In this document: positions 4,963 to 57,000 of the stretch, in pieces | Numbering within the stretch: the first letter of the stretch is position 1 | Layout: each line of letters begins with the position of its first letter | DNA from: Candidatus Magasanikiibacteriota bacterium | Lineage (GTDB): Bacteria > Patescibacteriota > Patescibacteriia > Magasanikbacterales > GWA2-37-8 | Direction: 5' to 3' | Length of the DNA stretch: 64,000 bases | NCBI GenBank assembly: GCA_016189025.1 | Contig: JACPGS010000005.1 | Coordinates: 385 to 64,384 of the forward strand | Position numbers and translations under genes: made by a program | Notes under the pieces: model-generated | The model's database searches: none | What the model saw: only the letters and a program-made list of their open reading frames with translations | Told to the model about the DNA's origin: nothing

Positions 4963-4985
4963 CTCCGACTTAGTCGGGGTTTTTT
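4963..4985 (+). terminator. hairpin CTCCGACTTAGTCGGGG plus T6; a copy of the CCCCGAC...GTCGGGG core palindrome acting as a terminator-like element
   Basis: Perfect palindrome CCGACTTAGTCGG followed by TTTTTT. Preceded by the 10-bp inverted repeat CCTCCTCCGC/GCGGAGGAGG and a polypyrimidine tract at 4861..4925. Confidence 0.45.
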
Positions 4986-8973: not shown

Positions 8974-9120
8974 ATAGTTTATACTACTCTAAACACTCAT
9001 AAAATTCAATACTTACCAATGCATACCGATCTTTTAATACTTATCCTTAATTTCCCATGTTCTTTCAGGAGTCTTGGTCATATAATACATTTCACCTTCT
9101 ATAAATTTAGTATGGTTATA

Positions 9121-9338
9121 CAACCAAATCCGAACCTATTTTATCGCAAATGTGTAATTTTGGGAAGGCCGCCCGACGGCTCCGCGCCCCGACCGAAGCG
9201 TCGGGGCTGGCAAATCCCGCAAAAATTTTCAATTCTTTTTATAGGGCGCGAAGCGGGCAAAAATTCCCTCTCCCTAACCCTCTTCCTTTTTGCCCGCTTA
9301 CGAGGGCGGCGGCCGATTTTTTGGGCGGGCGGCGGGCG
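9121..9338. repeat. long inverted repeat A, copy 1; partner at 14195..14518
   Basis: About 218 bp nearly identical to the reverse complement of 14195..14518, which carries an extra insertion of about 110 bp. Contains the hairpin GCCCCGACcgaagcGTCGGGGC. ORFs inside it (9150..9524, 9141..9428) are repeat artefacts. Confidence 0.7.
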
Positions 9339-9342
9339 GACG

Positions 9343-14061: not shown

Positions 14062-14194
14062 ATTGAGCTACGAATTATCATAAATCATTGTAATTATTAT
14101 ACCAGATTGGATGTGAATACACAATCGTCGTAGGGGAGTTCATATTTGTTGCGCGCGCAAGGGTGGGTGGGGCAAGCGCAACGACTATTATTTC

Positions 14195-14518
14195 GCCCGC
14201 CGCCCGCCCAAAAATCGCCTGCCGTCCTCGCAAGCGGGCAAAAAGGAAGAGGGTCAGGGAGAGGGAATTTTTGCCCGCTTGCGTTTCGCGCCGAAGGCGC
14301 GATGGGGAAAGCGGCTCCGCCTCCGCCGAATGGCGGAGAGACAATCCCGCAAAAATTTTCTTCCTTATTTGGAAAAGAAAAATCGCGCGCGCCCTATAAA
14401 AAGAATTGAAAATTTTTGCGGGATTTGCCAGCCCCGACGCTTCGGTCGGGGCGCGGAGCCGTCGGGCGGCCTTCCCAAAATTACACATTTGCGATAAAAT
14501 AGGTTCGGATTTGGTTGT
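14195..14518. repeat. long inverted repeat A, copy 2 (with an insertion of about 110 bp)
   Basis: Reverse complement of 9121..9338. ORF 14078..14629 and others inside it are repeat artefacts. Confidence 0.7.
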
Positions 14519-14519
14519 T

Positions 14520-14577
14520 TGTCGCCGATTTTTGGCGCGCCGAGGCGCGCCTGTTTCCCCGCCAAGAGGAGGTTCGA
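14520..14577. repeat. 58-bp inverted repeat, left copy, flanking the serine recombinase gene
   Basis: TGTCGCCGATTTTTGGCGCGCCGAGGCGCGCCTGTTTCCCCGCCAAGAGGAGGTTCGA is perfectly reverse-complementary to 16181..16238. Confidence 0.75.
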
Positions 14578-14794: not shown

Positions 14795-16354
14795 ATGACG
14801 CAAAAATTCTTTTTGTACACCCGCAAGTCTACGGATGTTGAGGATAAACAAATCCTCTCGATTGAAGCCCAACTCACAGAATTGCGCGCCTTTGCCAAAG
14901 AGAATAATTTGGAAATCGTGGAGGAGTTAATTGAAAAACAAACCGCGAAAGTGCCGGGTCGTCCCATTTTTAATGTTATGCTTGCCAGAATAGAAAAAGG
15001 AGAGGCCAATGGAATTTTGTCTTGGCACGCAGATCGTTTGGCGCGCAATTCCGTGGACGGTGGAAGAATTATTTACTTGCTTGATATAGGTAGACTTGCG
15101 GCGTTGAAATTTCCAACGCTGTGGTTTGACAACACGCCGCAAGGAAAGTTCATGCTCAACATCGCTTTTGGGCAAAGCAAATACTACGTTGATTCACTTT
15201 CGGAGAATGTGAAACGAGGATTGCGCCAAAAAGTCAGACGCGGAGAATATCCGAGCATTGCGCCAGTCGGCTATCTCAATGACGTGCGGCTGAAAACAGT
15301 CGTAGTGGACAAAAAGAAGTCGGCGATTATTAGTCAAGCGTTCGAACTCTACGCGAAAAATGACAGCCGTCTCGAAGATATATCTGACTTTTTGGCGCAC
15401 CAAGGCATTACCTCTCGCGGTGGCAAACCGCTCAAACGAGACAGAATTTCTTTTATCCTTTCCAACCCGTTCTATGTTGGGCTGTTTCAGTACGCAGGCG
15501 AGCTTTACGAAGGAAAACACCAGCCAGTTATCTCAAAGAAAATTTTTGACCACGTGCAGGAAGTATTAAAGCAGAGAGGACGGCCGCACCATAAAATCAA
15601 GAATGAATCGCAACCGTTCTGCGGACTTTTTTACTGCACCTGCGGCATGATGATTACTGGCGAATACAAGGTTAAGAGACAAAAAAATGGCAACGTGCAT
15701 TACTACACTTACTACCATTGCTCCCGAAAATCCAAAACCATCATTTGCAAAGAACCTTGTATTCGCCAAGAGGCATTGGATATACAGGTGTCCTCTCTGC
15801 TTCAAAAATTTTCTTTGAGCGAGGATTGGGCGGCGGAACTTTTGAAAATGTTTGAAAAGGACAGCGTGCAAGCCGCCCAATCCTCGACGGCTTTTGTTCA
15901 AGAGGCGCAGGGGAAGATTGAGGAAATTAAAACCAAGCTCCAGCGACTTCTGGACTCATATTTAGAGCAGGATGTTGAGCGCGAAGTGTATCTCAAAAAG
16001 AAGGCGGAACTGATGGGCGAAAAGAAGTCGTTGGAAGAAAAAAGTATCACTCTTAAACAAAAGCAAACTGGCTGGGTCGAACCGATGCGGAAATGGATAA
16101 AACAGGCAGAATATCTGCCCAAAATCGCATGGGATAGCAACCTTTTTGGCAAAAAGGTTGCCGCCAAAGAAATCTTTGGGTCGAACCTCCTCTTGGCGGG
16201 GAAACAGGCGCGCCTCGGCGCGCCAAAAATCGGCGACAATTGGGGGCAAAATCAATGGGCGGCCTTGCAGGCCGCCCACCAATTGGCTTCTGAAAACCCG
16301 AAAAGTTTTGTATTGGTACCGCGTACGGGAATCGAACCCGTGTTTGATGGCTGA
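14795..16354 (+). CDS. large serine recombinase (resolvase/invertase N-terminal domain + recombinase domain + zinc ribbon + coiled coil)
   Basis: N-terminal YTRKSTDVEDKQ...SIEAQ catalytic-serine region, Cys cluster CGLFYCTCG...YYHCSRK, long coiled-coil tail. The ORF reads through the right IR into tRNA-Glu, so the true C-terminus is uncertain. Confidence 0.75.
   Translation: MTQKFFLYTRKSTDVEDKQILSIEAQLTELRAFAKENNLEIVEELIEKQTAKVPGRPIFNVMLARIEKGEANGILSWHADRLARNSVDGGRIIYLLDIGRLAALKFPTLWFDNTPQGKFMLNIAFGQSKYYVDSLSENVKRGLRQKVRRGEYPSIAPVGYLNDVRLKTVVVDKKKSAIISQAFELYAKNDSRLEDISDFLAHQGITSRGGKPLKRDRISFILSNPFYVGLFQYAGELYEGKHQPVISKKIFDHVQEVLKQRGRPHHKIKNESQPFCGLFYCTCGMMITGEYKVKRQKNGNVHYYTYYHCSRKSKTIICKEPCIRQEALDIQVSSLLQKFSLSEDWAAELLKMFEKDSVQAAQSSTAFVQEAQGKIEEIKTKLQRLLDSYLEQDVEREVYLKKKAELMGEKKSLEEKSITLKQKQTGWVEPMRKWIKQAEYLPKIAWDSNLFGKKVAAKEIFGSNLLLAGKQARLGAPKIGDNWGQNQWAALQAAHQLASENPKSFVLVPRTGIEPVFDG
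16181..16238. repeat. 58-bp inverted repeat, right copy
   Basis: Perfect reverse complement of 14520..14577. Confidence 0.75.
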
Positions 16355-16388
16355 GAACCATCTGTCCTAGCCCCTAGACGAACGCGGC
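16314..16388 (-). tRNA. tRNA-Glu (anticodon CTC)
   Basis: Minus-strand sequence GCCGCGTTCGTCTAGGGGCTAGGACAGATGGTTCTCAGCCATCAAACACGGGTTCGATTCCCGTACGCGGTACCA. Glu-type D-arm, anticodon loop TTCTCAG, TTCGATT T-loop, CCA end. Confidence 0.75.
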
Positions 16389-19475: not shown

Positions 19476-19589
19476 GGCTAAAATATATCAATTTTCTTAA
19501 GCGGTCATCGCGGTCGCCTAAGGCGACCGACCGACCCCGACTAAGTCGGGGAGGGAGTTTGACCGCTAGAAAATTGATATATTTTAGCC
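19476..19589. repeat. MITE-like nested-hairpin element (family A)
   Basis: 30-bp terminal inverted repeats GGCTAAAATATATCAATTTTCTTAAGCGGTCA / TGACCGCTAGAAAATTGATATATTTTAGCC. They enclose the palindromes CGGTCGCCTAAGGCGACCG and CCCCGACTAAGTCGGGG. Confidence 0.65.
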
Positions 19590-19688
19590 TTTTCCTAAAT
19601 CGGCTAATTAACATCGGTCATAATTGTCTGCCGATTGACCAGGACTAATTTTTACGGTAAAATTGCCCAACCGAGCTATGGATTACGA

Positions 19689-19781
19689 AACCGAGCGAGG
19701 GAGTGGTAGACGAGAACTCTACGCGCGCATCCCGACTAAGTCGGGAGAGCACGTAGAGTGTCTACCACGACCGAGCGACCA
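19689..19781. repeat. hairpin repeat family B, copy 1
   Basis: AACCGAGCGAGGGAGTGGTAGACG...GTGTCTACCACGACCGAGCGACCA flanks are shared with 58863..58956. Central palindrome CCCGACTAAGTCGGG. Confidence 0.65.
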
Positions 19782-19853
19782 AGGTAGGACATTTTCGTAA
19801 TTCACAGCAACCGAGTAGCACTGATGATAACATAAACCCTTCCTTACGCCAAT

Positions 19854-22415
19854 ATGAGCAAAAGGGTTAAGACGGCAAAGCCGAGGGTCGCCCCCCCGCC
19901 GCGGCAACTCTACGACGCCTCTGACCAGACGCCGGTCCGGTTTGCCGTGTCGCCCGGATTGTCGGAGGAGATAATCCGGGAAATCTCGCGCCAAAAGCAG
20001 GAGCCGGCGTGGCTGTTAGAAAAACGTCTAAAAGCTTGGGGACTTTTTACCCAAACGCCCGTACCCACCTGGGGCGCTGATTTGTCTAAACTTGATTTGG
20101 ATAAAATTGTTTATTTTGTCCGGCCCGATGCCGCGGAAACCAAAAATTGGGCCGAGGTGCCGGCCGAGATTAAAAAAACCTTTGACCGGCTAGGTATCCC
20201 CGAAGCCGAAAAAAAAGCCCTGGCCGGCGTAGGGGCGCAATACGATAGCGACGTCGTGTATCACAAGCTCAAAAAACAATGGGAAGACAAAGGAGTGATT
20301 TTTGAGAATATGGACGTGGCGGTGCAGAAGTATCCGGAGCTGGTGAAAAAATACTTCATGACGCAATGCATTCCGATTAACGATCATAAATTCGCTATGC
20401 TCCACGCCGCGGTGTGGAGCGGCGGCACCTTTATTTATGTGCCCAAAAACGTCAGCGTGGATTTGCCGCTCCAGGCGTACTTCCGCATGAACGCGCGGGG
20501 CGGCGGGCAGTTTGAGCACACGCTCATCATCGTGGACGAGGGAGCGCAATTACATTATATTGAAGGCTGTTTTGTTAAAGGCACATACATTAAAACTGAC
20601 AAGGGCGACAAAACAATAGAAAGTATTAAAATTGGCGACAAGGTAATGACACATACAGGTGTGTATAAACCCGTATATCATACCCAGACAAGAAGACATA
20701 CTGGTGAGTTATATAACATAATATATTATGGTGATAGCACAGCAAATTTGTTGGTAACAAATGAGCATCCGTTCCTAGCCGTAAAAAGGCAACACAAAAA
20801 TGAGAAAAACGAAACGTGGGAAAAAGAGTGGATAAAACCACCGCAGTTAACCAAGCATGACTATCTCACTATACCTATTAATAAAACAATACGTACCGCA
20901 AAAAAATGTACTTTCACAATAAAAACATGGAACAATACAACCAAGGCATTTTATAATAAAAAAATTTCTGTGCTAAATGTTCCAGAATTTTATCGGCTGA
21001 TTGGATACTACCTTGCCGAAGGAAGCATCAGTGGCGGATATTATCTGAACTTCTCATTCGGAATAGAGGAGATAGTCTACATCGAAGACGTTGAAAATAT
21101 ACTCACTTCTTTATTTGGCGTCAAAAAAGTGCATCACATGGTTCACAAAACAAACCACGGAGTTTCACTGGTGGCATGTTCAGTGCAGCTCGCCCGTATT
21201 TTTGAGCAATTCGGAAAAAAGAATAATCTTAAACAATTGCCAAATTGGGCAATAACTGAATCACTTGAAAATCAAAAACAGCTTATTAAAGGATATTTTC
21301 GCGGTGATGGCAACTATTATAATCGTCGCCACGCTTCGGGATTTAAGGAAACCTTCAGAATGAATACAACCTCCAAAAAATTAACCTACCAAATGCGTGA
21401 CATACTCCTGCGTTTAAAAATCCCGGCTTTTATTAACCTGCGCGATAGAAAAAAAGAACATCGCCAGCCAATGTATACCATTGGAATTAGCGGAAATCAT
21501 ATGAAAAGCTTTGGCAATATAGTTGGCTTACCTGTTCCAGAAAAAATGCACGGTAAAAAACGTGCGTCACGATTTTATATTGATGATAACTATGCCTATT
21601 ATCCCATTAAATCTATACAAAAAAGAATGGTTAAAAAATTACCCGTCTATAATTTTAGCGTATTGGATAATGAAAGTTATATGGCCAACGGTGTTACGGT
21701 TCACAATTGTTCCGCCCCGCGCTACGGCACCAGCTCCCTGCACGCCGGCGGCGTGGAGATATTTGTCGGACGCGGCGCCCGGATGCGCTATTCCTCCATT
21801 GAAAACTGGTCGCACGACACCTATAATTTGAATACCAAACGCGCGCTGGTGGACGAGGATGGCATAATGGAGTGGGTCAACGGCAATCTGGGATCGTGCA
21901 CCACCATGCTCTACCCCTGCTCAATTCTGCGCGGGCGAGGGAGCCGCTCGGATTCGCTTGGCATTGCTTTTGCCGGCCCGGGCCAAAACCAAGACACCGG
22001 CGCCAAGGCCATCCACGCCGCGCCGCATACCAGTTCCACGATTGTTTCAAAATCTATCTCGGTGAATGGCGGCATCAATACTTTCCGCGGCCTGATTAAA
22101 ATAATGCCGATGGCTACGAACGTCAACGCCTCCATGGTCTGCGATGCGCTGCTCATCGGCAACCAGGCCATTGCCAACACCATTCCGGAGCTAAAGATAA
22201 AAAACGACCAGGTGCAGGTCGCCCACGAAGCGCGCGTCGGCAAAATCGGCGAAGAAGAAATTTTCTTTTTGCAATCAAGAGGGCTTAACGAGCAGGAAGC
22301 GACGCGATTAGTTGTCTCCGGTTTTATTGAACCGATTGTCAAAGCCTTGCCGGTGGAGTATGCTTTGGAATTGAATAGGCTGATTGAGATGGAAATGGAT
22401 GGGGCGGTTGGTTAA
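19854..22415 (+). CDS. sufB: Fe-S cluster assembly protein SufB interrupted by an intein
   Basis: SufB extein sequences flank an insertion. The junctions LHYIEG|C and HN|CSAP match the conserved SufB EGCxAP site. Confidence 0.85.
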   Translation: MSKRVKTAKPRVAPPPRQLYDASDQTPVRFAVSPGLSEEIIREISRQKQEPAWLLEKRLKAWGLFTQTPVPTWGADLSKLDLDKIVYFVRPDAAETKNWAEVPAEIKKTFDRLGIPEAEKKALAGVGAQYDSDVVYHKLKKQWEDKGVIFENMDVAVQKYPELVKKYFMTQCIPINDHKFAMLHAAVWSGGTFIYVPKNVSVDLPLQAYFRMNARGGGQFEHTLIIVDEGAQLHYIEGCFVKGTYIKTDKGDKTIESIKIGDKVMTHTGVYKPVYHTQTRRHTGELYNIIYYGDSTANLLVTNEHPFLAVKRQHKNEKNETWEKEWIKPPQLTKHDYLTIPINKTIRTAKKCTFTIKTWNNTTKAFYNKKISVLNVPEFYRLIGYYLAEGSISGGYYLNFSFGIEEIVYIEDVENILTSLFGVKKVHHMVHKTNHGVSLVACSVQLARIFEQFGKKNNLKQLPNWAITESLENQKQLIKGYFRGDGNYYNRRHASGFKETFRMNTTSKKLTYQMRDILLRLKIPAFINLRDRKKEHRQPMYTIGISGNHMKSFGNIVGLPVPEKMHGKKRASRFYIDDNYAYYPIKSIQKRMVKKLPVYNFSVLDNESYMANGVTVHNCSAPRYGTSSLHAGGVEIFVGRGARMRYSSIENWSHDTYNLNTKRALVDEDGIMEWVNGNLGSCTTMLYPCSILRGRGSRSDSLGIAFAGPGQNQDTGAKAIHAAPHTSSTIVSKSISVNGGINTFRGLIKIMPMATNVNASMVCDALLIGNQAIANTIPELKIKNDQVQVAHEARVGKIGEEEIFFLQSRGLNEQEATRLVVSGFIEPIVKALPVEYALELNRLIEMEMDGAVG
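20568..21707 (+). mobile_element. intein (380 aa) with LAGLIDADG homing-endonuclease domain inside sufB
   Basis: Starts with Cys (CFVKG), ends with ...VHN followed by extein Cys. Two LAGLIDADG-like motifs (LIGYYLAEGSISG and LIKGYFRGDGN). AT-rich relative to the exteins. Confidence 0.8.
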
Positions 22416-25358: not shown

Positions 25359-25409
25359 TGCTCAAAAATAGTAAGGCCGTATTGCAGCGACGCTCTATAA
25401 TATTATGAA

Positions 25410-25539
25410 ACTGTAGAAGAAGCCTACTATATCGTTATCCGCCTGGTCGCTATCGCTATTGCGGTAACTTACTTGGTTGGTCGCCCCGACTAAGTCGGGG
25501 CTCCCTGATGCTGACTAGTTTTTCCAATTCTTCTACAGT
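25410..25539. repeat. MITE-like element family C, copy 1
   Basis: TIRs ACTGTAGAAGAA / TTCTTCTACAGT. Internal region shared with 29549..29724, including TTATCCGCCTGGTCGCTATCGCTATTGC, ACTTACTTGGTTGGTCGC and the core CCCCGACTAAGTCGGGG. Confidence 0.7.
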
Positions 25540-25566
25540 GTCATTATACTAAATGTCAAGGCAATT

Positions 25567-25863
25567 ATGCACACCGAACCAAAACTCCCTCCTGACCTCC
25601 CGGAAAATCTAAGCCAAAAAATCCGGGCTGGCGGCAAAATCCGCCGGATTGTGATAGACCGGCAGCAGTGCATTGGCGCCGGATCGTGCGTAGCCGTGGC
25701 GCCGGGAGTGTTCCAGCTGGATAAAGATAACCTGGCCTATATTGTTGACCCGGAAGCTGCCAATGAAGACGACCTGCTGCTCGCCGCGCAATCCTGCCCG
25801 GTGCTGGCGATTTCCCTGTATGATGAAGCCGGCAACAAAATTTTTCCGGCGGAAAAAATCTGA
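25567..25863 (+). CDS. small ferredoxin (single Fe-S cluster, CxxxxxC...C type)
   Basis: CIGAGSCVAVAP ... SCP cysteine pattern in a 98-aa protein. Confidence 0.6.
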   Translation: MHTEPKLPPDLPENLSQKIRAGGKIRRIVIDRQQCIGAGSCVAVAPGVFQLDKDNLAYIVDPEAANEDDLLLAAQSCPVLAISLYDEAGNKIFPAEKI

Positions 25864-29526: not shown

Positions 29527-29548
29527 AGGTCAACGCCTATCATTGGAC

Positions 29549-29724
29549 GGTAGAAGAATACTAACTCATTATCCGCCTAGTCGCTATCGCTATTGCTAAA
29601 ATTTACTTGGTTGGTCGCGGCAGATACTCTTTGAGTGCTCCCCCGACTAAGTCGGGGTGCGCGCCCAAAGACACTCGTCTGCCGCTCCCGGATGCTAGCT
29701 GGTTGTTTTTGTTCTTCTCCAGTC
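29549..29724. repeat. MITE-like element family C, copy 2
   Basis: TIR-like GGTAGAAGAA / TTCTTCTCCAGT. Internal blocks are homologous to copy 1. Core CCCCGACTAAGTCGGGG at 29641..29657. ORF 29577..29768 is an artefact of the repeat. Confidence 0.7.
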
Positions 29725-29739
29725 TCATCATAACATAAA

Positions 29740-32061
29740 CTAGCGTTTCCAAAAACGCCCCTGCTCAAACATCTGGCGTTTCCAGCGGTAAAAATGCCGG
29801 TAATCGCACAGGGTTAACTCGGCCGAAGCGCGGTAATCATAATCCGCAGGACACTCTACCTGGCTCGGTATTGAATAATCAATTCTCCGCTTGCCGGCCT
29901 GGTCAAGCTGATTGATATACAACCCCAGCTCATGCATGCCGAGCAAGTTAGGATAAGCGCGCCGATCGTCAAAAATTGAGTGTCCTTCAAATGAATTGAG
30001 CATATTAATACCCAGGAGCTGCAATAAAGTCGGGGTAAAATCCAACCCCGACGAGTATAAGTCTACTTCTTTAGGCAGGACCGTATCCGGAACATAAAGC
30101 AAAAAAGCATTTTCGTCGTAAAAAGTTAGCTTACCGGCTTCGGCCGGGAACAAATCGCGGGTAAACGCGGCCGGAAATACCGCGTGGTCACCCACGGCCA
30201 CCACGATAGTATTGGTAGCGTACCGGCTGGCCTGAAACTCCTGCCAAAATTTACCAAACGCGTCGTCGGTAGTGCGAAAAGCGTTTAGCAGGGTGCTTTT
30301 GCCGTCGCCGTAAGTCAGCCCGTCTTTGGCCAGGTTAAACGGCGGATGAGTGTCTACCGTAGAAAGCATAACTAAAAACGGCTCGCGCGCCCGCTCTCCA
30401 ATAATCTGCCACAGCGCCGGCAGCATCTGATGATCCGAATATCCCCAAGATTTAGGCGCCGCCTCAATCCAGCGGGCGAGTTCCGCGGTGCCGTACACTT
30501 CCTGCGTTCCCATGCTGGCAAAAATGCCGTCTTTATTGGCAAAATCTTTTTGTACGGCAGTAATATAAGCGCTATATTGATAACCAGAGCGATGAAGTGC
30601 TTCCGGCAGACACAACAAACGATGGCGCTTGAGTTTGCGCTCGTTCTGAATTTCTTCGTGGCCGGTGGGCGGCAAAAATGAACACAACTGGGAGAGGAGA
30701 CCGGTAACGGTAGGAGTGGAAGCATTGTAATATTTTTTAAAAATGGTGGTGTCGGGATTCCCGGCCATGGCTTCCAGCCCCGGAGTAAGGCCGGGGAAAC
30801 GTTTGCTGTAAACGCTGGTTAAACGGGTAGAATAAGATTCCAAAAAAATGATAATGATATTGGGGCGCTGTTGCCGGAATTTCTCCGGCAGGAGCCGGGC
30901 CGTATTAGTAGGGCTATACACGAACGGCCGCTCGGCAATATAGAACGTGTCGGGATTATAGCGCAAACCGAAACGTTCTAACTTAGAGCGCACGGCCGGA
31001 TTGAGCACCAACGGCGCTTGGGGACGGAAATAGTACTCATAAAATGATTTAGCCACCGCCCGCTCCGGCGTGGTGCGGAAAGATGCCAGGCCAAACCAGG
31101 CGAACAATGCCAGAATAATTACTCCCGCCTGATAAAACTGCCAGTAACGCGCCGGCGCCTGGCGGTGGGCCCGGGCGACGCGTTTAATTACCAAAACAAA
31201 ACCGACTGTTACTACCGCTAGCAGCGACAGGAGCGGCACCGTAGAACTATTCTTTACCACTTCTCCCCCGCCCCGCAGATGCTGCAGCGCGACCGGCGAC
31301 AGCGGTAGTCCGGAATAATACAGCACGCCCACGTTCACGGTCCAAAAAAATAAGCCGACCACAAAAAACCCTGACCACAGGGTAACCACCAGGTAACGCC
31401 ACCATCCCTCAAGCTTCCAGAATAACCAGCCGCCCGCCGCAAACCCCACCAGCCAGAATAAACTCATCGCTAGGGCGCGGAATACTACAATATTGGGAAA
31501 ACGAACATTAGAATCCAGAATATAAAAACGCCAGCTGGCGTACTGCACCGCTGCTTGCACCAAAAAAATAAAAAACACCAGGGCAAACACGTGCGCGTGC
31601 ACCGTAAGCCAAGGAGCAGCCGCCGGATGACGCGCCAGCGCACTGCGCAGCTGCCAAAAAAACAGCAGTAATACCAAAGAAACGTAGATTAAACTGGCTA
31701 GTTCATTGCGCAAGAAAAAAGTAACGAACAGCAACGAACCAGCGGCAAACAGCCGATCCAGGAGCAAGGCAAATTCAGCGCGCCAAAAAGGATGGCGCCG
31801 AAAGCGCTGAACCAGATACAAATAAAGTAGCACGCCCAGCCGATAACCCAGGTACACCGCCGCCCAGGTGAGCAGAGAAATAACGACAAAGCGCTCGTGG
31901 GGAGAAATGGTCCAAACTTTTACCCGGCGCGGCAGATGATACCAATTCCAGCCGGCGGCAATGATAAAAGACCCAGCTATCGCATATAAGCTGGGAAAGA
32001 AACGACGAAAAAAATATTGCCCCAAAGAAATTTTCATTGTGGCGCTAGATTTAAATTTCAC
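29740..32061 (-). CDS. LTA-synthase-family sulfatase (N-terminal polytopic membrane domain + extracellular alkaline-phosphatase-superfamily domain)
   Basis: Several TM helices, then a sulfatase-like domain (IIIFLESYSTR..., VGDHAVF). The annotated start is GTG overlapping the hpf stop; an ATG alternative lies at 32037. Confidence 0.75.
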   Translation of the reverse strand: MKFKSSATMKISLGQYFFRRFFPSLYAIAGSFIIAAGWNWYHLPRRVKVWTISPHERFVVISLLTWAAVYLGYRLGVLLYLYLVQRFRRHPFWRAEFALLLDRLFAAGSLLFVTFFLRNELASLIYVSLVLLLFFWQLRSALARHPAAAPWLTVHAHVFALVFFIFLVQAAVQYASWRFYILDSNVRFPNIVVFRALAMSLFWLVGFAAGGWLFWKLEGWWRYLVVTLWSGFFVVGLFFWTVNVGVLYYSGLPLSPVALQHLRGGGEVVKNSSTVPLLSLLAVVTVGFVLVIKRVARAHRQAPARYWQFYQAGVIILALFAWFGLASFRTTPERAVAKSFYEYYFRPQAPLVLNPAVRSKLERFGLRYNPDTFYIAERPFVYSPTNTARLLPEKFRQQRPNIIIIFLESYSTRLTSVYSKRFPGLTPGLEAMAGNPDTTIFKKYYNASTPTVTGLLSQLCSFLPPTGHEEIQNERKLKRHRLLCLPEALHRSGYQYSAYITAVQKDFANKDGIFASMGTQEVYGTAELARWIEAAPKSWGYSDHQMLPALWQIIGERAREPFLVMLSTVDTHPPFNLAKDGLTYGDGKSTLLNAFRTTDDAFGKFWQEFQASRYATNTIVVAVGDHAVFPAAFTRDLFPAEAGKLTFYDENAFLLYVPDTVLPKEVDLYSSGLDFTPTLLQLLGINMLNSFEGHSIFDDRRAYPNLLGMHELGLYINQLDQAGKRRIDYSIPSQVECPADYDYRASAELTLCDYRHFYRWKRQMFEQGRFWKR

Positions 32062-32411
32062 TCCTGGTATTCCTTATTCTCCCGCACGATCTCTTTGGTC
32101 TTCTTCAACTCTCCCCGCAGTTTAGCCTTATGCTTTTTCAACCGCCGCTCCAGGTGGTCTTTAAGCGAATCAACCGCTTCGTAAAGGCTGCTGGCTTCGC
32201 GGCGCACAAATACGTCATAACCCGGCACCTCCAGCCGCCCCTCGGCAAAAAAGAGATTGCCCTGCTGGTGGCGTTTAGTGTCTTCGCCGAGCACAATATC
32301 CGCCCGGATAATGCCGGAGAAAAACTTGGCGACGGCATTGAGCTTTTTGCCGACGTAATCTTCAATGGCGTCGGTCAGGCGCACGCCGCGTCCCGAGATG
32401 ATGATTTGCAT
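32058..32411 (-). CDS. hpf: ribosome hibernation promoting factor (HPF/RaiA family)
   Basis: MQIIISGRGVRLTDAIEDYVGKKL is a canonical HPF N-terminus. Confidence 0.8.
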   Translation of the reverse strand: MQIIISGRGVRLTDAIEDYVGKKLNAVAKFFSGIIRADIVLGEDTKRHQQGNLFFAEGRLEVPGYDVFVRREASSLYEAVDSLKDHLERRLKKHKAKLRGELKKTKEIVRENKEYQE

Positions 32412-32519
32412 AAATGGATTAATAAAATAATACTCAATAATGCTAACTGGTTATTACTATTCTTCCACCATCTCACTATATCGTAATAAAGAAAGGCGGC
32501 CGCGTCAACCCAGAAAAGG

Positions 32520-51096: not shown

Positions 51097-54000
51097 CTAG
51101 TTGCAGCCGTCGTCTACGACGCCGTTGCAGTTATTGTCATACTGGTCGCACCACTCGGTAGAACCCGGGTGGTTGTGGTACGACCCGTCAGTGACAAACG
51201 AGAACCCCTGCAAAGGCGTTGAATCGGACGGGTTGTCGTCGCAGTCGCCGCCTTGGAGGTCGGCAACCGCGATTGCCGGGTTGCGACTGCCGGTACAGGG
51301 CGCCACTTCACAGAACCCATCGCCGTCGTCATCCCAGCTATCGCAGGTGGTGTCCGGCAACGGCCCGCCGCCCGCGCCCGATGCCCGCAGCGGCGTCAGC
51401 CCGTGCTGATCCAAGCAAACACCGGCGAGATCGGTGCCGGTCAGGTCTCGGCCGGTCAGGTCGCTCCCGGCAAGATCTGCCGCGGGACTGCCATCCGCTG
51501 CCCCGCCCGTGAGGTCGCTCGTGAGGTCAGAGGCCGCTGCAGTCAGGTCGCCGGCGCTTGCGAGGTCAGGGGCAACGGATTGATCCAGAAACACCAACCG
51601 ATCTGCTGCGACCGTGAGATCCGTTGCTACAGCGCTGTCACCCACTGCCGAAAAATCGGCTACGCCTCCGACACCATCCGCGCCCGTGAGATCCGGCAAC
51701 GACGACAGATCCATCGCCAGCGCCCCGTCCGCCATCGTGAGGTCTGGTACAACCGTAAGATCAGGCCCTACCGTAAGATCAGGCAGAACTGCCAGATCGG
51801 GCGGAGGCGTGAGGTCATTCGGAGGCAATTCGAGATCCGGCGAAGAAACGACCGCATCCGGCGGAACACCGAGATCCGGTGAGGGGCCGCTGGCATCACC
51901 GACGCCGCCATCCCCTACTGTCGCACATACCCCGCCGACGCAGGCGCCACTCGCGCAGTCGCCCGCGCTCGCGCAACGCGCTCCTATGGGACAACCCAGG
52001 CAACTCCCGCCACCGCAGTCAAGGTCGCTCTCGCTGCCGTTCCGGACGCTGTCGCTGCAGGTTGGCGGCCGGCAGGTGTTGTTGGTGCAGACGCCGCTGG
52101 CACAATCCAGGGCGCCGCCACAACTCATGCCGTCCGGACAGCCCGGGCAAGCACCGCCGCCGCAGTCCACGTTAGTCTCAAAGCCATTCCGGAAACCGTC
52201 GTTACACGACGACACGCAGACGTTGTTGGTGCACACATCGCTCGTACAATCCGAGCCATGCTGACACCCCTTGCCGTCCACGCACCGGCCGCACACGCCG
52301 CCGCCGCAATCCACGTCCGTTTCCTGCCCATTTACTGCCCCATCCGAGCAGGTGGCAATATCATGGCACGTTCCGCCGACACAGCTCATCCCTGCCGGGC
52401 AGACTTCCCCGCAAGCGCCGCAATTGGCATTGGTGCCAAGGGTGGTTTCGCAGCCGTCAGTGCGCTTGCTGCCGTTGCAATCCGCGAACCCGCTGGCGCA
52501 GGCACCGGTGCACTGGCCGCCAACGCATAGCCGGATAACGAGGTTGAGGCCCGAGCAGACTTGCCCGCAGCCTCCGCAGTGGTCCGGATCCGAGGTAGTG
52601 TTTACCTCGCAGCCGTCCAGAGCGTGATCGCTGTTGCAATCCGCAAAGCCAGGCGAACAGGTGCCGCGGCAAACTCCTGTGGTGCAGGTGCGGAGGGTGA
52701 TGTTCTGCGTGGAGCAGATTACCCCGCAGGCGCCGCAGTTCTCCACGTCGCCGTCGGTGTAACTTTCGCACCCGTCAGTGACATTGCTGTTGCAATCAGC
52801 GTAGCCGGCGTTGCCCCGGGTAAACCCGCACTGACCGTTGGTACAGGCGGGATTGGCATTGGGAGTGAGGCAGGGTTGACTGCAAACGCCGCAGTTCGCG
52901 AGGTCGGAATTCAGGTTGACCTCGCAGCCGTCGCGGCGCTTATCGCCGTTGCAATCCGCGAAGCCGGCGCTGCAGGCCCCACCGCAAACGCCAACCGTAC
53001 AGGTAGGCGCCGCGATGTTGTTGCCCGAGCACTCCGCCCCGCAACCACTGCAATGGCGCGGATCGGCGTTGACGTTCACCTCGCAGCCGTCGCGGCGCTG
53101 GTCAGCGTTGCAGTCGGCGAAGCCGGAAAGGCAATCGCCGGCGCAAGCGCCTTCCACGCACCGCAACATCGAGATGTTTACGCCCGAGCAGGTGTTCCCG
53201 CAGCCGCCGCAGTTGCCTACGTCAGTAGCGGTATTCACCTCGCAGCCGTTCCCCGCCGCGCCGTCGCAGTTGGCGTATCCGCTGTTGCAGGTCGCCACCT
53301 GGCAGGCGCCGCCGAAGCAGGCTGGCGTACCGTTCGCTGCGAAGCAAGCAATGCCGCACGCCCCGCAGTTGCCCACGTGGCGCTCGAGCTCTACTTCGCA
53401 GCCGTCGCTCGGATTGCTGTTGCAGTCCGCGAAGCCGGCGCTGCAGCTTGCCACCTGGCAGGCGCCGTTGGTACAGACCGGCGTGCCGTTGGCGACGACA
53501 CAGACCTTGCCGCAGGCGCCGCAATTATTGAGGTCGCGGGCGGTTTCGGTCTCACAGCCGTCCAGCTGCTTGTTGGCATTGCAGTCGGAGAATCCTGAAG
53601 CGCAGGCGCCGATACAGCTACCGGTAGAGCAGGTCGGCGCGACGTGATTTGCCGAGCAGACCGCGCCGCAGGCGCCGCAAGCGTCCTTGTTCAGGGTGAG
53701 GCTGGTCTCACAGCCGTCCGCGGCGCTGCTGTTGCAGTCCGCGAAGCCGGCGGAACAGGAGACTATCGTACAAGCTCCTCCGATGCAGTTGGAGGCGCCA
53801 TTGGGATTCAGGCACGCGCGGCTACAGACGCCGCAGTGCTGATTATCACTCCGCAGATCCACCTCGCAACCGTCGGCCGGATTGTTATTGCAATCCGCGA
53901 AGCCGGCGGCGCACTGCCCGATGACGCACGCCCCGCCCACACAGACCGGAGTGGCATTCGGCAGAGCGCACACCTTGCCACAGCCGCCGCAGTTGCCTAC

Positions 54001-57000
54001 GTCAGTAGCGGTATTCACTTCGCAGCCGTCCAGGCGCTTGTTGCCGTTGCAATCCGCGAAACCAGCGGCGCAGACGCCTGCCTCGCACGAACTCGCCGCA
54101 CAAGAGGCGGCGATATTCTGGGTGCTACAGGCCGACCCACACCCGCCGCAGCTCGTGGTGCTCGTCGCGAGGTTCGTCTCACACCCGTCGGCCGCATCCG
54201 CGTTGCAGTTGGCGTACCCCGCGTTGCAGGAGGCGATGTTGCACTTGCCTACCGAACACGCCGGCGTACCGTTTGCCGCCACGCAGCTTACCCCGCAGCC
54301 GCCGCAGTTCTCCGCGTCGCTTGCGAGGTTTGCCTCGCACCCGTCGCCCGACCAGCCGTTGCAGTCCTGGAAACCAGAGTGGCAGGAGGCGATCCCGCAA
54401 AAGCTACTGAAAAAGCCAGGGAAACACCCAGCGGTACCGTTCGGAGCCGAACACCGCACGCCGCAGAACCCGCAGTTATTGGGGTCAGCCGCGATGTTGG
54501 TTTCGCACCCCGTTCCGTACGCGCCGTCGCAGTCCGCAAAGCCAGGGTCGCACCCACCACTGATGGTGCAGGATCCTCCCCAACACATGGGGAGACCGTG
54601 CGCCGGCGGCGAGCAGACATTGCCACAGCTGCCACAGTTGCGCAGGTCGTAAAGAGTATTTACCTCGCAACCGTTACTTGGATTGCGGTCGCAATCCGCA
54701 TAACCGGAGTAACAGCTGGTAAGGGTACACTCCCCGCCGAGGCAGCTAGAAGTGCCGCCGAAGCGGGAACACGCCGCCCCGCAAGCGCCGCAGTTGCCGG
54801 CATTGCTCATGAGGTTGGTCTCGCAGCCGTCCGAGAGATTCGCATTGCAGTCCGCGAACCCGACGGAGCAGCCGACGAAGACACAGGAACCGGCCGAACA
54901 GACCGAGGCGCCATTCGCGAACAGACAGAGCCGTCCGCAGGCGCCGCAGTGCTGGGCGTTGATGCGGGTGTCAACTTCACACCCGTCCGCCGCCATGCCG
55001 TTGCAGTCCGCGAAGCCGGCAGCGCACGAGCCGACCGCGCACGCGCCGTTCAAACAAACAGCCGCGGCGTTCGGGAGTGAACACACTGCTCCGCACCCGC
55101 CGCAGTTCCGGACGTCGCTCATTGTATCGGTCTCGCAGCCGTCCGCGGCGCTGCTGTTGCAGTCCGCGAAGCCGACGGAACAGGAAACGATCGTGCAAGC
55201 CCCTCCGATACAGCGGGAGGCGCCGTTGGGATTCAGGCACGCGCGGCTACAGACGCCGCAGTGCTGGTTGTCGCTGCGGAGATCCGCCTCGCAGCCGTCC
55301 GAGAGATTCGCATTGCAGTCCGCGAACCCGACGGAGCAGCCGACGAAGACACAGGAACCGGCCGAACAGACCGAGGCGCCATTGGCGAACAGGCACAGCC
55401 GTCCGCAGGCGCCGCAGTTGGTGGCGCTGGTTGCGAGGTTGGTCTCGCAGCCATCCGCCACCACGCCGTTGCAGTCCGCGAAGCCAGGAGCACACGCCCC
55501 GATGGCGCACGCGCCGTTCAAACAAACAGCCGCGGCGTTCGGGAGTGAACACACTGCTCCGCACCCGCCGCAGTTCCGGACGTCGCTCATCGTGTCCATT
55601 TCGCAGCCGTCTAGACGCTTACTGCTGTTGCAGTCCGCGAAGCCCGGGAAGCATCCGCCGCCCTCGCACGAGCCGCTCTCGCAGGAGGCGACGATGTTCC
55701 GGGTGGAACACGCCGACCCGCAGCCGCCGCAGCTGGCGAGGGTGGTATTCAGGTTGACCTCGCAGCCGTCGGAGGCCTTACCGTTGCAGTCCGCGAAGCC
55801 GGTCTGGCAGGAGGCGACTGTACAGGCTCCACCCGCGCAGCCCGCAGCGCCATTCGCAATCACGCAGGCGTGGCCGCAGACGCCGCAGTTGCTGGGGTGG
55901 TTCTGGATGTTCACTTCACAGCCGTTCGCGACGTTGCCGTCGCAATCGGCAAAGCCCGCTTTGCACGAGCTAATACCGCACACTCCGCTGGCGCAGAGGG
56001 GGTTGGCGTTGGGAGGGGAAGGACACGGCTGGTTGCACCCGCCGCAGTGCGCCAGGTCGCGCGTGGTATCCACGCAGCGTCCCTGGCACTGGGCAAGCTC
56101 GGTCGGACACGGCTCACAGACGCCGAAGTGGCAGGTGCCGCTCCGGCAATCCGCGCCCGTGAGGCAATCCGAGAAGTCGCGGCACGGCAGGCACGCGCCG
56201 CCGCAGTCCACGTCAGTCTCTAGGCCATTCTTGATGCCGTCGCTACAGACCGGCGCCTGGCAGACGCCCCCGAGGCAAAGCCCGGAGGAACAGTCAGCCG
56301 CTAGTTCGCAGGAAAATCCCGGCTGACAGGCCGGACACCCGCCGCCGCAGTCCACGTCGGTTTCACGGCCGTTCTTCACGCTGTCGTGGCAGCTCGGCGC
56401 TGCGCAGCGGAGCGTCGGCAGATTGCAGACGCCGCTCACGCAGTCCGCGCCCAGGAAGCAGCGCTTACCGTCCGGACAGGGAGCACACAGCGGCCCCCCG
56501 CAATCCACATCGGTTTCGCTGCCGTTGGGGAACGACATGGTAGCGCCGTCCGCGCAACTCGGCTGGGGAGTGCAGAAAAGGTTGAAGCAGTTCCCAGTCA
56601 GGCAATCACGCCCCACCAGGCACTCCTGCCCAGCCTCACAGCGCCCGCACTTCCCGCCGCCGCAGTCCGCATCGGTTTCCAAGCCATTCTTCACGCCGTC
56701 GCGACACGTCGGGATGCACTCGCGGTTATTGCAGGTGAAGTTCCCCGTGGGCGCGCAGGCATACCAGCACGACCCACAGTTGTTCGCGTCATTCGCGAGG
56801 TTCACCTCGCAGCCGTCTATGGCATTCGCGTTGCAGTTCGCGAATCCAGGCTTGCAGGAAACGTCGCAGGTGCCGGAAACGCACACCGGATATCCCTGCG
56901 CCGATAGCGGACAGCGATTGCCGCAACCGTCGCAGTTGCGCGGGTCAACGTCGATGTTCGTCTCGCAGCCGTTGCCGACGTCGCCGTCGCAATCCGTGAA

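Follow-up and report, generated by a model that had tools for sequence, protein, structure and literature searches.

A small family of nested hairpins in a Magasanikiibacteriota genome and its possible resemblance to REP-like repeats

Two intergenic repeats that share their ends to the letter and differ in their centres raise the question of whether such a sequence is a hairpin maintained for its structure or a repeat in decay and, if it is maintained, what kind of element it may be. The copies studied here, named B1 (19689..19781, plus strand, 93 nt) and B2 (58863..58956, plus strand, 94 nt), lie in a stretch of 64,000 nt (the window) from Candidatus Magasanikiibacteriota bacterium (GenBank assembly GCA_016189025.1, contig JACPGS010000005.1, positions 385 to 64,384 of the forward strand). 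An earlier note, made from the letters of the DNA, had proposed that they form a functional hairpin with two copies. The genomes of the candidate phyla radiation (CPR), or Patescibacteria, to which this bacterium belongs, are tiny and have little non-coding DNA. A family of about 90-nt hairpins folding at -50 kcal/mol, with invariant loops and co-varying stems, would be either a compact form of selfish DNA that has persisted despite genome streamlining or a signal for RNA stability or processing, particular to the lineage and placed before an essential Fe-S assembly operon.

Architecture and co-variation of the hairpins

Reading B1 from its left end, AACCGAGCGA is followed by a GG-GA-GT base, a GGTAGAC outer stem, the ACTCTACG middle stem and a C-GC-GCA loop; then come the apical hairpin TCCCGAC-TAA-GTCGGGA, a GA-GC-A loop, the return arms and GACCGAGCGACCA. 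B2 has the same ends, carries CCCCGCG-TA-CGCGGGG in place of the apical hairpin of B1, and has one compensated pair and two mismatches in the middle stem. Both copies were found where the earlier note had placed them, with the sequences it had read, and the identity of their 24-nt flanks is complete: none of the 48 flank positions differs, against 13 of 46 in the interior (Fisher p = 3e-5). Each flank occurs exactly twice in the window and in none of 100 dinucleotide-preserving shuffles. The ends form terminal inverted repeats, GGGAGTGGTAGAC versus GTCTACCACGACC, complementary at 11 of 13 positions, within which GTGGTAGAC and GTCTACCAC are perfectly complementary; the 9-nt arm GTGGTAGAC was found in the window solely as the four arms of B1 and B2. 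Pairwise alignment limits the identity to the 93/94 nt. Local alignment of the 120 nt upstream was no better than that of shuffles, and downstream gave p = 0.06. Since the sequence outside is not alignable, the element is sharply bounded.

Both copies are bounded by a 9-nt direct repeat, ACCGAGCGA, at 19690..19698 (plus strand) and 19770-19778 in B1, and at 58864-58872 and 58945-58953 in B2. The shorter AACCGAG occurs seven times on the plus strand of the window; three of these copies fall within 140 nt of B1, with spacings of roughly 20, 80 and 40 nt, and extra copies stand just outside B1 at 19669 and 19809. Contigs of independent short-read assemblies from other samples match the right junction of B1 (L011) and of B2 (L012, L013), so that neither copy is an assembly artefact. 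In both B1 and B2, independent short-read contigs stop within the element, 28-32 nt short of its right end. Such breaks are expected if further copies are present elsewhere in the genome, although they are suggestive only; the same assemblies also break at another repeat boundary, at 9140. Short-read assembly of this organism apparently breaks at the B elements, which matters for binning and for the annotation of spacers.

By RNA folding each copy forms one long rod, of -52.2 kcal/mol (z = -8.1) for B1 and -51.3 kcal/mol (z = -4.2) for B2. The change from CTCT/AGAG to CCCT/AGGG between the copies is a genuine compensated pair, as had been proposed, and two more were found in the apical stem (from B1 to B2, G-C to C-G and A-T to G-C). 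The middle stem of B2 contains two uncompensated changes that the earlier note lacks, giving A.G and U.U oppositions, and B2 also has one change of U-A to U.G. The centres do differ, but their description as perfect palindromes did not stand: they are hairpins, with loops of 3 nt or 2/4 nt.

The family extends beyond B1 and B2. A third full member, E3 (29609..29693, minus strand, 85 nt), is about 70% identical to B1, and a minimal form, M (25479..25505, minus strand, 27 nt), reads GGGAGC-CCCGACTTAGTCGGG-GCGACC, that is, base and core with no intermediate layers. A covariance model, which the earlier note had suggested as a check, was built from B1, B2 and E3. The three score 107.7, 98.9 and 77.7 bits, respectively (E 3e-16 for E3), and a search of the window with filters off gave no full copy beyond them. 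On the minus strand, E3 is alignable to B1 and B2 from GGGAG through CGACC. Its base is GGGAGC/GCGACC, its loops GCGCGCA and GAGCAC and its core apex are as in B1, and its outer and middle stems show seven double-sided changes relative to B1.

All four members have the base clamp 5'-GG-GA-GY...RC-GA-CC-3' with a tandem G.A opposition; in B1 and B2 the G.A step of the base is present three times, ending in the ACCGAGCGA repeat. Outer and middle helices are found in B1, B2 and E3 and are missing from M. Neither the base (GGGAG / CGACC) nor the internal loops ever vary among the full members. The 5' loop motif GCGCGCA stands at 19723..19729 (plus strand), at 58897-58903 and, on the minus strand, within 29654-29664, and its 3' partner GAGCAC at 19747-19752, at 58922-58927 and within 29635-29643.

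The figures for co-variation come from three full sequences, which are few. In a MAFFT alignment on the B1 structure, standard pairs occupy 93.2% of the pair cells, and pairing falls to 37-52% when the partners are slid by 1-3 columns as a control. Six pairs are changed on both sides in this register, a number reached by one of 500 shuffles. A structure-aware register, in which the middle helix of E3 has a register of its own, gives ten double-sided changes versus B1 (three in B2 and seven in E3), besides one wobble and three broken pairs. Conservation is thus greater for structure than for sequence, which supports a maintained hairpin and not random decay. The earlier argument to this effect is strengthened by the addition of E3 (93% standard pairs), an additional copy that does vary in a structure-preserving manner; nor was any transposase or insertion sequence (IS), of which the element might have been a fragment, found around any copy (Pfam, blastn).

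The apical hairpin of B1 (19730..19746, plus strand) corresponds to a 15-nt core repeat, CCCGACTAAGTCGGG, the commonest small hairpin repeat of the window, with six copies, one in this apex and the others at 4964, 16962, 19536, 25485 and 29642. The copy at 29642 sits inside the further paired layers that make up E3. The core forms the apex of three of the four members (B1, E3 and M), and the apex of B2 differs. Since the apex of B1 is the commonest hairpin, part of the difference between the centres looks like a difference of modules and not like drift by point mutation. Outside the family, the core at 4964-4978 is a textbook bidirectional terminator, and it is likewise a phage terminator in contig L021.

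M and E3 occupy exactly the same point of two paralogous units, U1 (25400-25560, minus strand) and U2 (29534..29745, minus strand, roughly 200 nt), which are about 85% identical outside the hairpin. Each unit folds as a long hairpin, with ACTGKAGAAGAA / TTCTTCTACMGT as inverted ends. A short and a long allele at one point provide a concrete handle on the growth or exchange of hairpins. A 28-nt motif (minus strand TGTAGAAGAATTGGAAAAACTAGTCAGC and variants) was seen four times, at 25510-25537, 29694-29721, 32442-32469 and 60760-60787, in each case 3-50 nt downstream of the stop of a minus-strand gene; two of the four form the outer arm of U1 and U2.

The two strands of the element are not equivalent. 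The strand with GGGAG on its 5' side is the more stable in all four members (RNA -52.2/-50.1, -51.3/-45.4, -48.0/-46.2 and -21.4/-18.2 kcal/mol), and DNA folding parameters favour the same strand in every case. The opposite strand would have destabilising U.C or T.C oppositions in place of the G.A steps, and both G.U wobbles fall on the GGGAG-first strand, versus one C.A opposition in E3. Read in this orientation, E3 and M run in the same direction as the minus-strand genes beside them, and B1 in that of sufB. The balance leans weakly towards a strand-specific structure that would form on a single strand in the transcribed sense.

What kind of element the hairpin may be

Our favoured reading, to which a probability of about 0.45 is given, is a lineage-specific dispersed palindromic element resembling repetitive extragenic palindromes (REPs) and bacterial interspersed mosaic elements (BIMEs), maintained in hairpin form and transcribed together with the genes beside it. 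The B family may be a functional analogue of REP/BIME, BOX or Correia-type small repeats with an architecture of its own. Copying or exchange of the element between sites would take place at the level of DNA, and the hairpin would be the feature that is recognised or selected. Transcribed in sense with the neighbouring genes, it would form a very stable RNA rod, which could act as a ribonuclease barrier or a processing signal, either by REP-like protection of mRNA ends or as an RNase III-type site. The outer and middle helices would be optional, with their sequence free while the arms stay complementary, and the apex would be exchangeable, being usually the CCCGAC-TAA-GTCGGG core. The dispersal of the copies, the short and long alleles M and E3, and the presence of the core in varied contexts were counted in favour, as were the constant ends beside a variable interior, the invariant motifs, the structure-preserving changes, the strand asymmetry and orientation, and the contig breaks.

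REPs are extragenic, lie mostly downstream of genes, and are plausibly transcribed and act as RNA elements (PMC3733652). Like the B family, REPs and BIMEs are GC-rich imperfect palindromes that are dispersed in both orientations and whose stems co-vary; they build larger mosaic secondary structures by combination, and REPs are often co-transcribed and thought to act as RNA hairpins (PMC3733652). The spread of REPs is thought to depend on recognition of a single-stranded hairpin, which is a further likeness. The Correia (Neisseria), ERIC (enterobacterial) and BOX and RUP (pneumococcal) repeats are similar in being non-coding, about 100 nt long, with conserved inverted ends and a variable interior, and BOX elements are modular, as is the B family. 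When transcribed along with genes, repeats of these four kinds fold into long hairpins in the RNA, by which the processing or stability of the mRNA can be changed.

A number of points weigh against the favoured reading. The full members, at 82-94 nt with three stacked helices, exceed the 20-40 bp of classical REPs, and only M (27 nt) is in that range. Where one end of a REP bears an unpaired GTAG or CGTC tag (PMC3733652), the B family has the partly paired, G.A-clamped base GGGAG(Y)/CGACC and no such tag at a conserved position: GTAG is found in the outer stem of B1 and B2 but reads GCAG in E3, and GACG is conserved but internal. REPs usually exceed 100 copies; three full copies and one minimal copy were found in the 64-kb window, all intergenic and in both orientations, and the contig breaks hint at more. 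REPs are associated with a gene for a REP-associated tyrosine transposase (RAYT), whereas neither a RAYT/Y1 gene nor an IS200/IS605 or other transposase gene was found among the open reading frames (ORFs) of the 64 kb. The orientation evidence is weak, because at three of the four sites the genes beside the spacer diverge or converge, so that either orientation is sense to something. Invariant loops with co-varying stems equally fit a functional RNA selected by the host, and template switching can produce matched changes in DNA palindromes without selection. The favoured reading also leaves unexplained the ACCGAGCGA repeats bounding B1 and B2, the AACCGAG copies near B1, and the end motifs of B that recur in swapped order in a neighbouring 114-nt hairpin (described below).

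Other known systems fit in part. Miniature inverted-repeat transposable elements (MITEs) have a target-site duplication that varies by locus, whereas the 9-nt ACCGAGCGA is the same at both B1 and B2, and so is not an ordinary target-site duplication, and is missing at E3 and M. MITEs also have a related autonomous IS, and no parent was found for the B family in the window, plasmids, phages, GTDB, JGI or IMG/VR; in addition, the interior of B, unlike that of MITE-like repeats, is itself fully palindromic with compensatory evolution. The family thus falls outside REPs by size and tag and outside MITEs by target duplication and, as far as the collections just named reach, by parent IS. Integron attC sites share with the B family conserved ends and a variable centre kept in structure; further likenesses are action in the form of a folded single strand and the importance of extrahelical or mismatched bases. 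They carry RYYYAAC / GTTRRRY core sites, however, where B ends in AACCGAGCGA ... GAGCGACCA, and belong with an integrase and a cassette array, whereas the B copies are solitary in ordinary spacers and no integrase domain was found (Pfam). Intrinsic terminators are likewise GC-rich hairpins just downstream of genes, and the core alone is one at 4964-4978, but B1 lies upstream of a gene and B1, B2, E3 and M have no U-run on either side (tails GACCAAGG / GACCAGGC). Since the U-tract is lacking, the family is not a canonical terminator; true terminators with T-runs exist elsewhere in the window. TIGR-Tas arrays, described in CPR bacteria and phages, consist of tandem units in which box C/D motifs flank dual unpaired spacers, and adjoin a tas gene for a Nop-domain protein; they resemble the B family in occurring in CPR lineages and in having variable yet palindromic stems with short conserved motifs (PMC12045711). 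Their spacers are 8-12 nt and unpaired, whereas the B copies are nearly fully paired, solitary and 5 to 39 kb apart, and the window encodes no Nop-domain protein.

A structured RNA module selected by the host, with the GA-rich base and invariant loops as a platform for protein or RNA binding and the stems as scaffolding, is a serious rival, though on balance an unlikely one. It would be expected in leaders, intercistronic spacers and 3' regions, or as a small RNA made from promoter-like sites, and such sites do stand at similar distances (22-26 nt) before B1 and B2. The promoter regions themselves are not homologous, so the promoter was not carried along with the element as part of a gene, and neither copy is followed by a terminator. 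Invariance of loops and base beside co-varying stems is what such a module would show; the G.U wobbles, both on the GGGAG-first strand, and the tandem G.A steps, stabilising on that strand only, point the same way, although E3 has one C.A opposition, which only the other strand would turn into a wobble. E3 has the look of an expansion segment in a larger paralogous unit that folds well. The contexts, however, have no function in common, no Rfam family matches even at E<=10, and no conserved relatives outside this organism were found in the GTDB, JGI and IMG/VR scans. Quite unlikely is a site acting at the DNA level, a cruciform or single-strand hairpin with the ACCGAGCGA repeats serving recombination or protein binding, for instance as the product or substrate of a site-specific recombinase or as a binding array for a nucleoid protein or regulator. 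The same 9 nt at both ends of both copies, three of the seven plus-strand AACCGAG within 140 nt of B1, a large serine recombinase gene at 14795-16354, and paralogous repeats that here twice differ by hairpin-containing indels would suit it. E3 and M are entirely without the ACCGAGCGA repeats, however; the recombinase, 3 kb from B1, is tied to its own 230-nt inverted repeats and a tRNA, with no link to the element; attC-type core sites are absent; and G.A-clamped, bulged rods are poor duplex binding sites.

Correction of quasi-palindromes by template switching during replication is an established mechanism that keeps arms complementary, and the family could be a neutral by-product of such dynamics, having grown, been corrected and been exchanged with neither selection nor function. 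Matched changes in the arms are its expected product. The perfect 22-nt inverted repeat around the neighbouring hairpin cluster, a GGTCGCC-TAA-GGCGACC hairpin that looks like a "perfected" version of the flanks of M, and the hairpin-bearing indels that separate paralogous repeats are also in keeping with it. Left unexplained are the unpaired loops and G.A steps, which do not vary even though correction should erase G.A oppositions, the absence of any change in the flanks against 28% divergence of the interior, and the dispersal to unrelated sites; we regard this origin as the least probable of those considered. Only slightly less doubtful is the view that M, E3 and B1/B2 form a series within an undescribed modular "hairpin-in-hairpin" element of CPR bacteria, a new module for mobility or RNA processing and not a look-alike of REPs or MITEs. 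Between the fixed G.A-clamped base and the fixed core, complementary helix layers would be inserted or swapped, and a candidate dedicated protein would recognise the GA-rich loops on single-stranded DNA or RNA.

Genomic contexts and searches for relatives

The four members lie in four unrelated spacers: the leader or divergent spacer of sufB (B1), the 3' side of a gene for a Cys-rich protein (B2), and, for the other two, the spacer between sulfatase-family and P-type ATPase genes and the convergent spacer after the suf cluster. The contexts being unrelated and the flanks without homology, no evidence was found of a specific tie to sufB or to the Cys-rich genes, and we infer that the B element is not a gene-specific regulator of sufB. 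The distance of about 70 nt from copy 1 to the start of sufB proved to be 72 nt, from the end of B1 to the ATG at 19854. A promoter-like TTGACC-17-TAAAAT (19635..19663, plus strand, a consensus match only, at 10 of 12 positions) precedes B1 by 26 nt, and B1 would lie in the sufB leader if this site is used. A weaker promoter-like TTCACA-16-GATGAT (19801-19828, plus strand) stands between B1 and sufB, again as a consensus match only. For B2, the promoter-like CTGGCA-17-TAGAAT (58813..58841, plus strand, a consensus match only, at 9 of 12 positions) lies 22 nt upstream. The upstream promoter regions of B1 and B2 showed no significant homology, and no terminator was called after either copy.

The sufB gene (19854..22415, plus strand) encodes 853 amino acids with a SufBD core and a Hint/LAGLIDADG intein, and is followed by a tRNA-Ser on the opposite strand and then by sufS, nifU, sufC and a FeS-assembly-P gene. 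The gene content of the window is bacterial (PBP2, MurB, Mur ligase, LexA, SmpB). The best named homologues of the intein-bearing SufB outside this metagenome-assembled genome (MAG) are from DPANN archaea (Woesearchaeota, Nanoarchaeota) and not from bacteria, with 51-61% identity over the full length, intein included; the two closest matches have 65-66%. The spacers at these two closest loci (L015, L016) lack the element. Upstream of sufB in the closer one (L015, 408-595, 66%) there is an unrelated inverted repeat of about 190 nt with 42-nt arms, whose right arm contains a GGAGG Shine-Dalgarno sequence and whose left arm contains the complementary CCTCC, which suggests that this hairpin may sequester the sufB ribosome-binding site.

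Copy 2 had been placed between two Cys-module genes. A Cys-rich gene does adjoin it, and a tRNA-like gene in the same spacer had been overlooked. The right end of B2 lies 7 nt beyond the stop codon of the gene for a 395-aa Cys-rich hypothetical protein (58964..60151, minus strand), for which a database search found no paralogues. This protein has one repeat type in common with a 2363-aa Cys-rich protein (51097-58188, minus strand) that is built of repeats of about 52 aa (156 nt) and has no Pfam match. ARAGORN called the tRNA-like gene (58585-58675, plus strand) a 91-nt tRNA-Val(GAC) whose variable arm is long and whose CCA is encoded; its one Rfam match, tRNA-Sec at 35.7 bits, falls short of the gathering score of 47. 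A Val tRNA of class-II shape would be unusual.

Relatives of the element were sought in several collections. In GTDB representative genomes and JGI metagenomes the arm pattern of B1 and B2 matched by chance only (Archangium operator-like palindromes, coding sequence); these scans used the T-containing arms, by which E3-type variants would be missed, and since the copies of the window itself did not come back, the MAG is not in the GTDB collection scanned. A degenerate arm pattern had no match in IMG/VR, blastn of the element against plasmids and phages gave none, and a search of its six-frame open frames against 5.8 billion proteins revealed no spurious ORF lying over another copy. Logan contigs with GatA, sought at one edge of the window, did not reach beyond it, and for SmpB at the opposite edge there was no recorded contig. 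At the gathering threshold Rfam recognised only tRNAs in the window; with permissive settings (E<=10) the best overlap was atpB RNA at 11.1 bits (threshold 37.4, E 4.6), and nothing credible was obtained. Pfam scans of the window ORFs revealed no transposase, RAYT/Y1, IS200/IS605, tyrosine-type integrase, reverse transcriptase (RT) or Nop domain; the sole recombinase in the window is the large serine recombinase already mentioned. No REP- or MITE-type repeat family of CPR bacteria is described in the literature searched.

Scans of IMG/VR with the core 17-mer (matches in L020, L021 and L022) and the loop motif (L023) gave no relative among the matches examined (L020, L021, L023). The loop-motif match in L023 is antisense in the baseplate gene of a phage resembling gene transfer agents, in DNA of roughly 70% GC, and was treated as chance; the core match in L021, the phage terminator, is unrelated, as is that in L020, an RNA-virus-like contig encoding an RNA-dependent RNA polymerase (RdRp). 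The latter (IMG/VR uncultivated virus genome 3300022523_000156, 1-2202, 2.2 kb) has a single RdRp-like ORF with a GDD motif and a weak match to mitovirus RdRp. It contains 15 perfect hairpins with variable stems of 6-9 bp and TAA/TTA loops, of which 12 have a CT(A/T)AG centre, and one of the 15 happens to equal the core hairpin of the window.

Some further identities were considered for the element and rejected. A coding element or small peptide does not fit, the GUG-initiated frame being broken between the copies by an indel frameshift and the open frames being different. The template or variable repeat of a diversity-generating retroelement was set aside, because the differences are not confined to adenines and RT is lacking. 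An IscR or SufR operator would have another spacing and motif by its consensus, and the tandem G.A steps lack the 3-nt bulge of a K-turn.

Neighbouring repeats and other features of the window

The 114-nt hairpin next to B1 (19476..19589, plus strand) folds at -71.5 kcal/mol and consists of a perfect 22-nt AT-rich inverted repeat around two GC hairpins, each looped as C-TAA-G. It carries the end motifs of B swapped around the core, CGACCGACCGAC - core - GAGGGAGT. CGACCGA[CG]CGAC was found in the window only in B1, B2 and this hairpin, and GAGGGAGT in the same three places and once more on the minus strand, at 25591. The left arm of the 114-nt hairpin includes the -35-like TTGATA of a divergent oxidoreductase gene, and four independent short-read contigs terminate inside the hairpin, at 19513-19515.

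A pair of inverted repeats of about 230 nt (9120-9340 / 14190-14520) surrounds a 4.85-kb segment with genes for an ABC transporter and a methyltransferase. The segment adjoins the large serine recombinase gene (14795-16354) and a tRNA-Glu (16314-16388), and could be an invertible or integrated segment. The right copy of the repeat has about 107 nt of additional GC hairpins (14281-14388), and the Logan contig L017 breaks at 9140. Finally, an ORF resembling the ribosome hibernation factor HPF/RaiA was recognised by eye at about 32075-32412 (minus strand), with a longer antisense ORF at 32130-32486.

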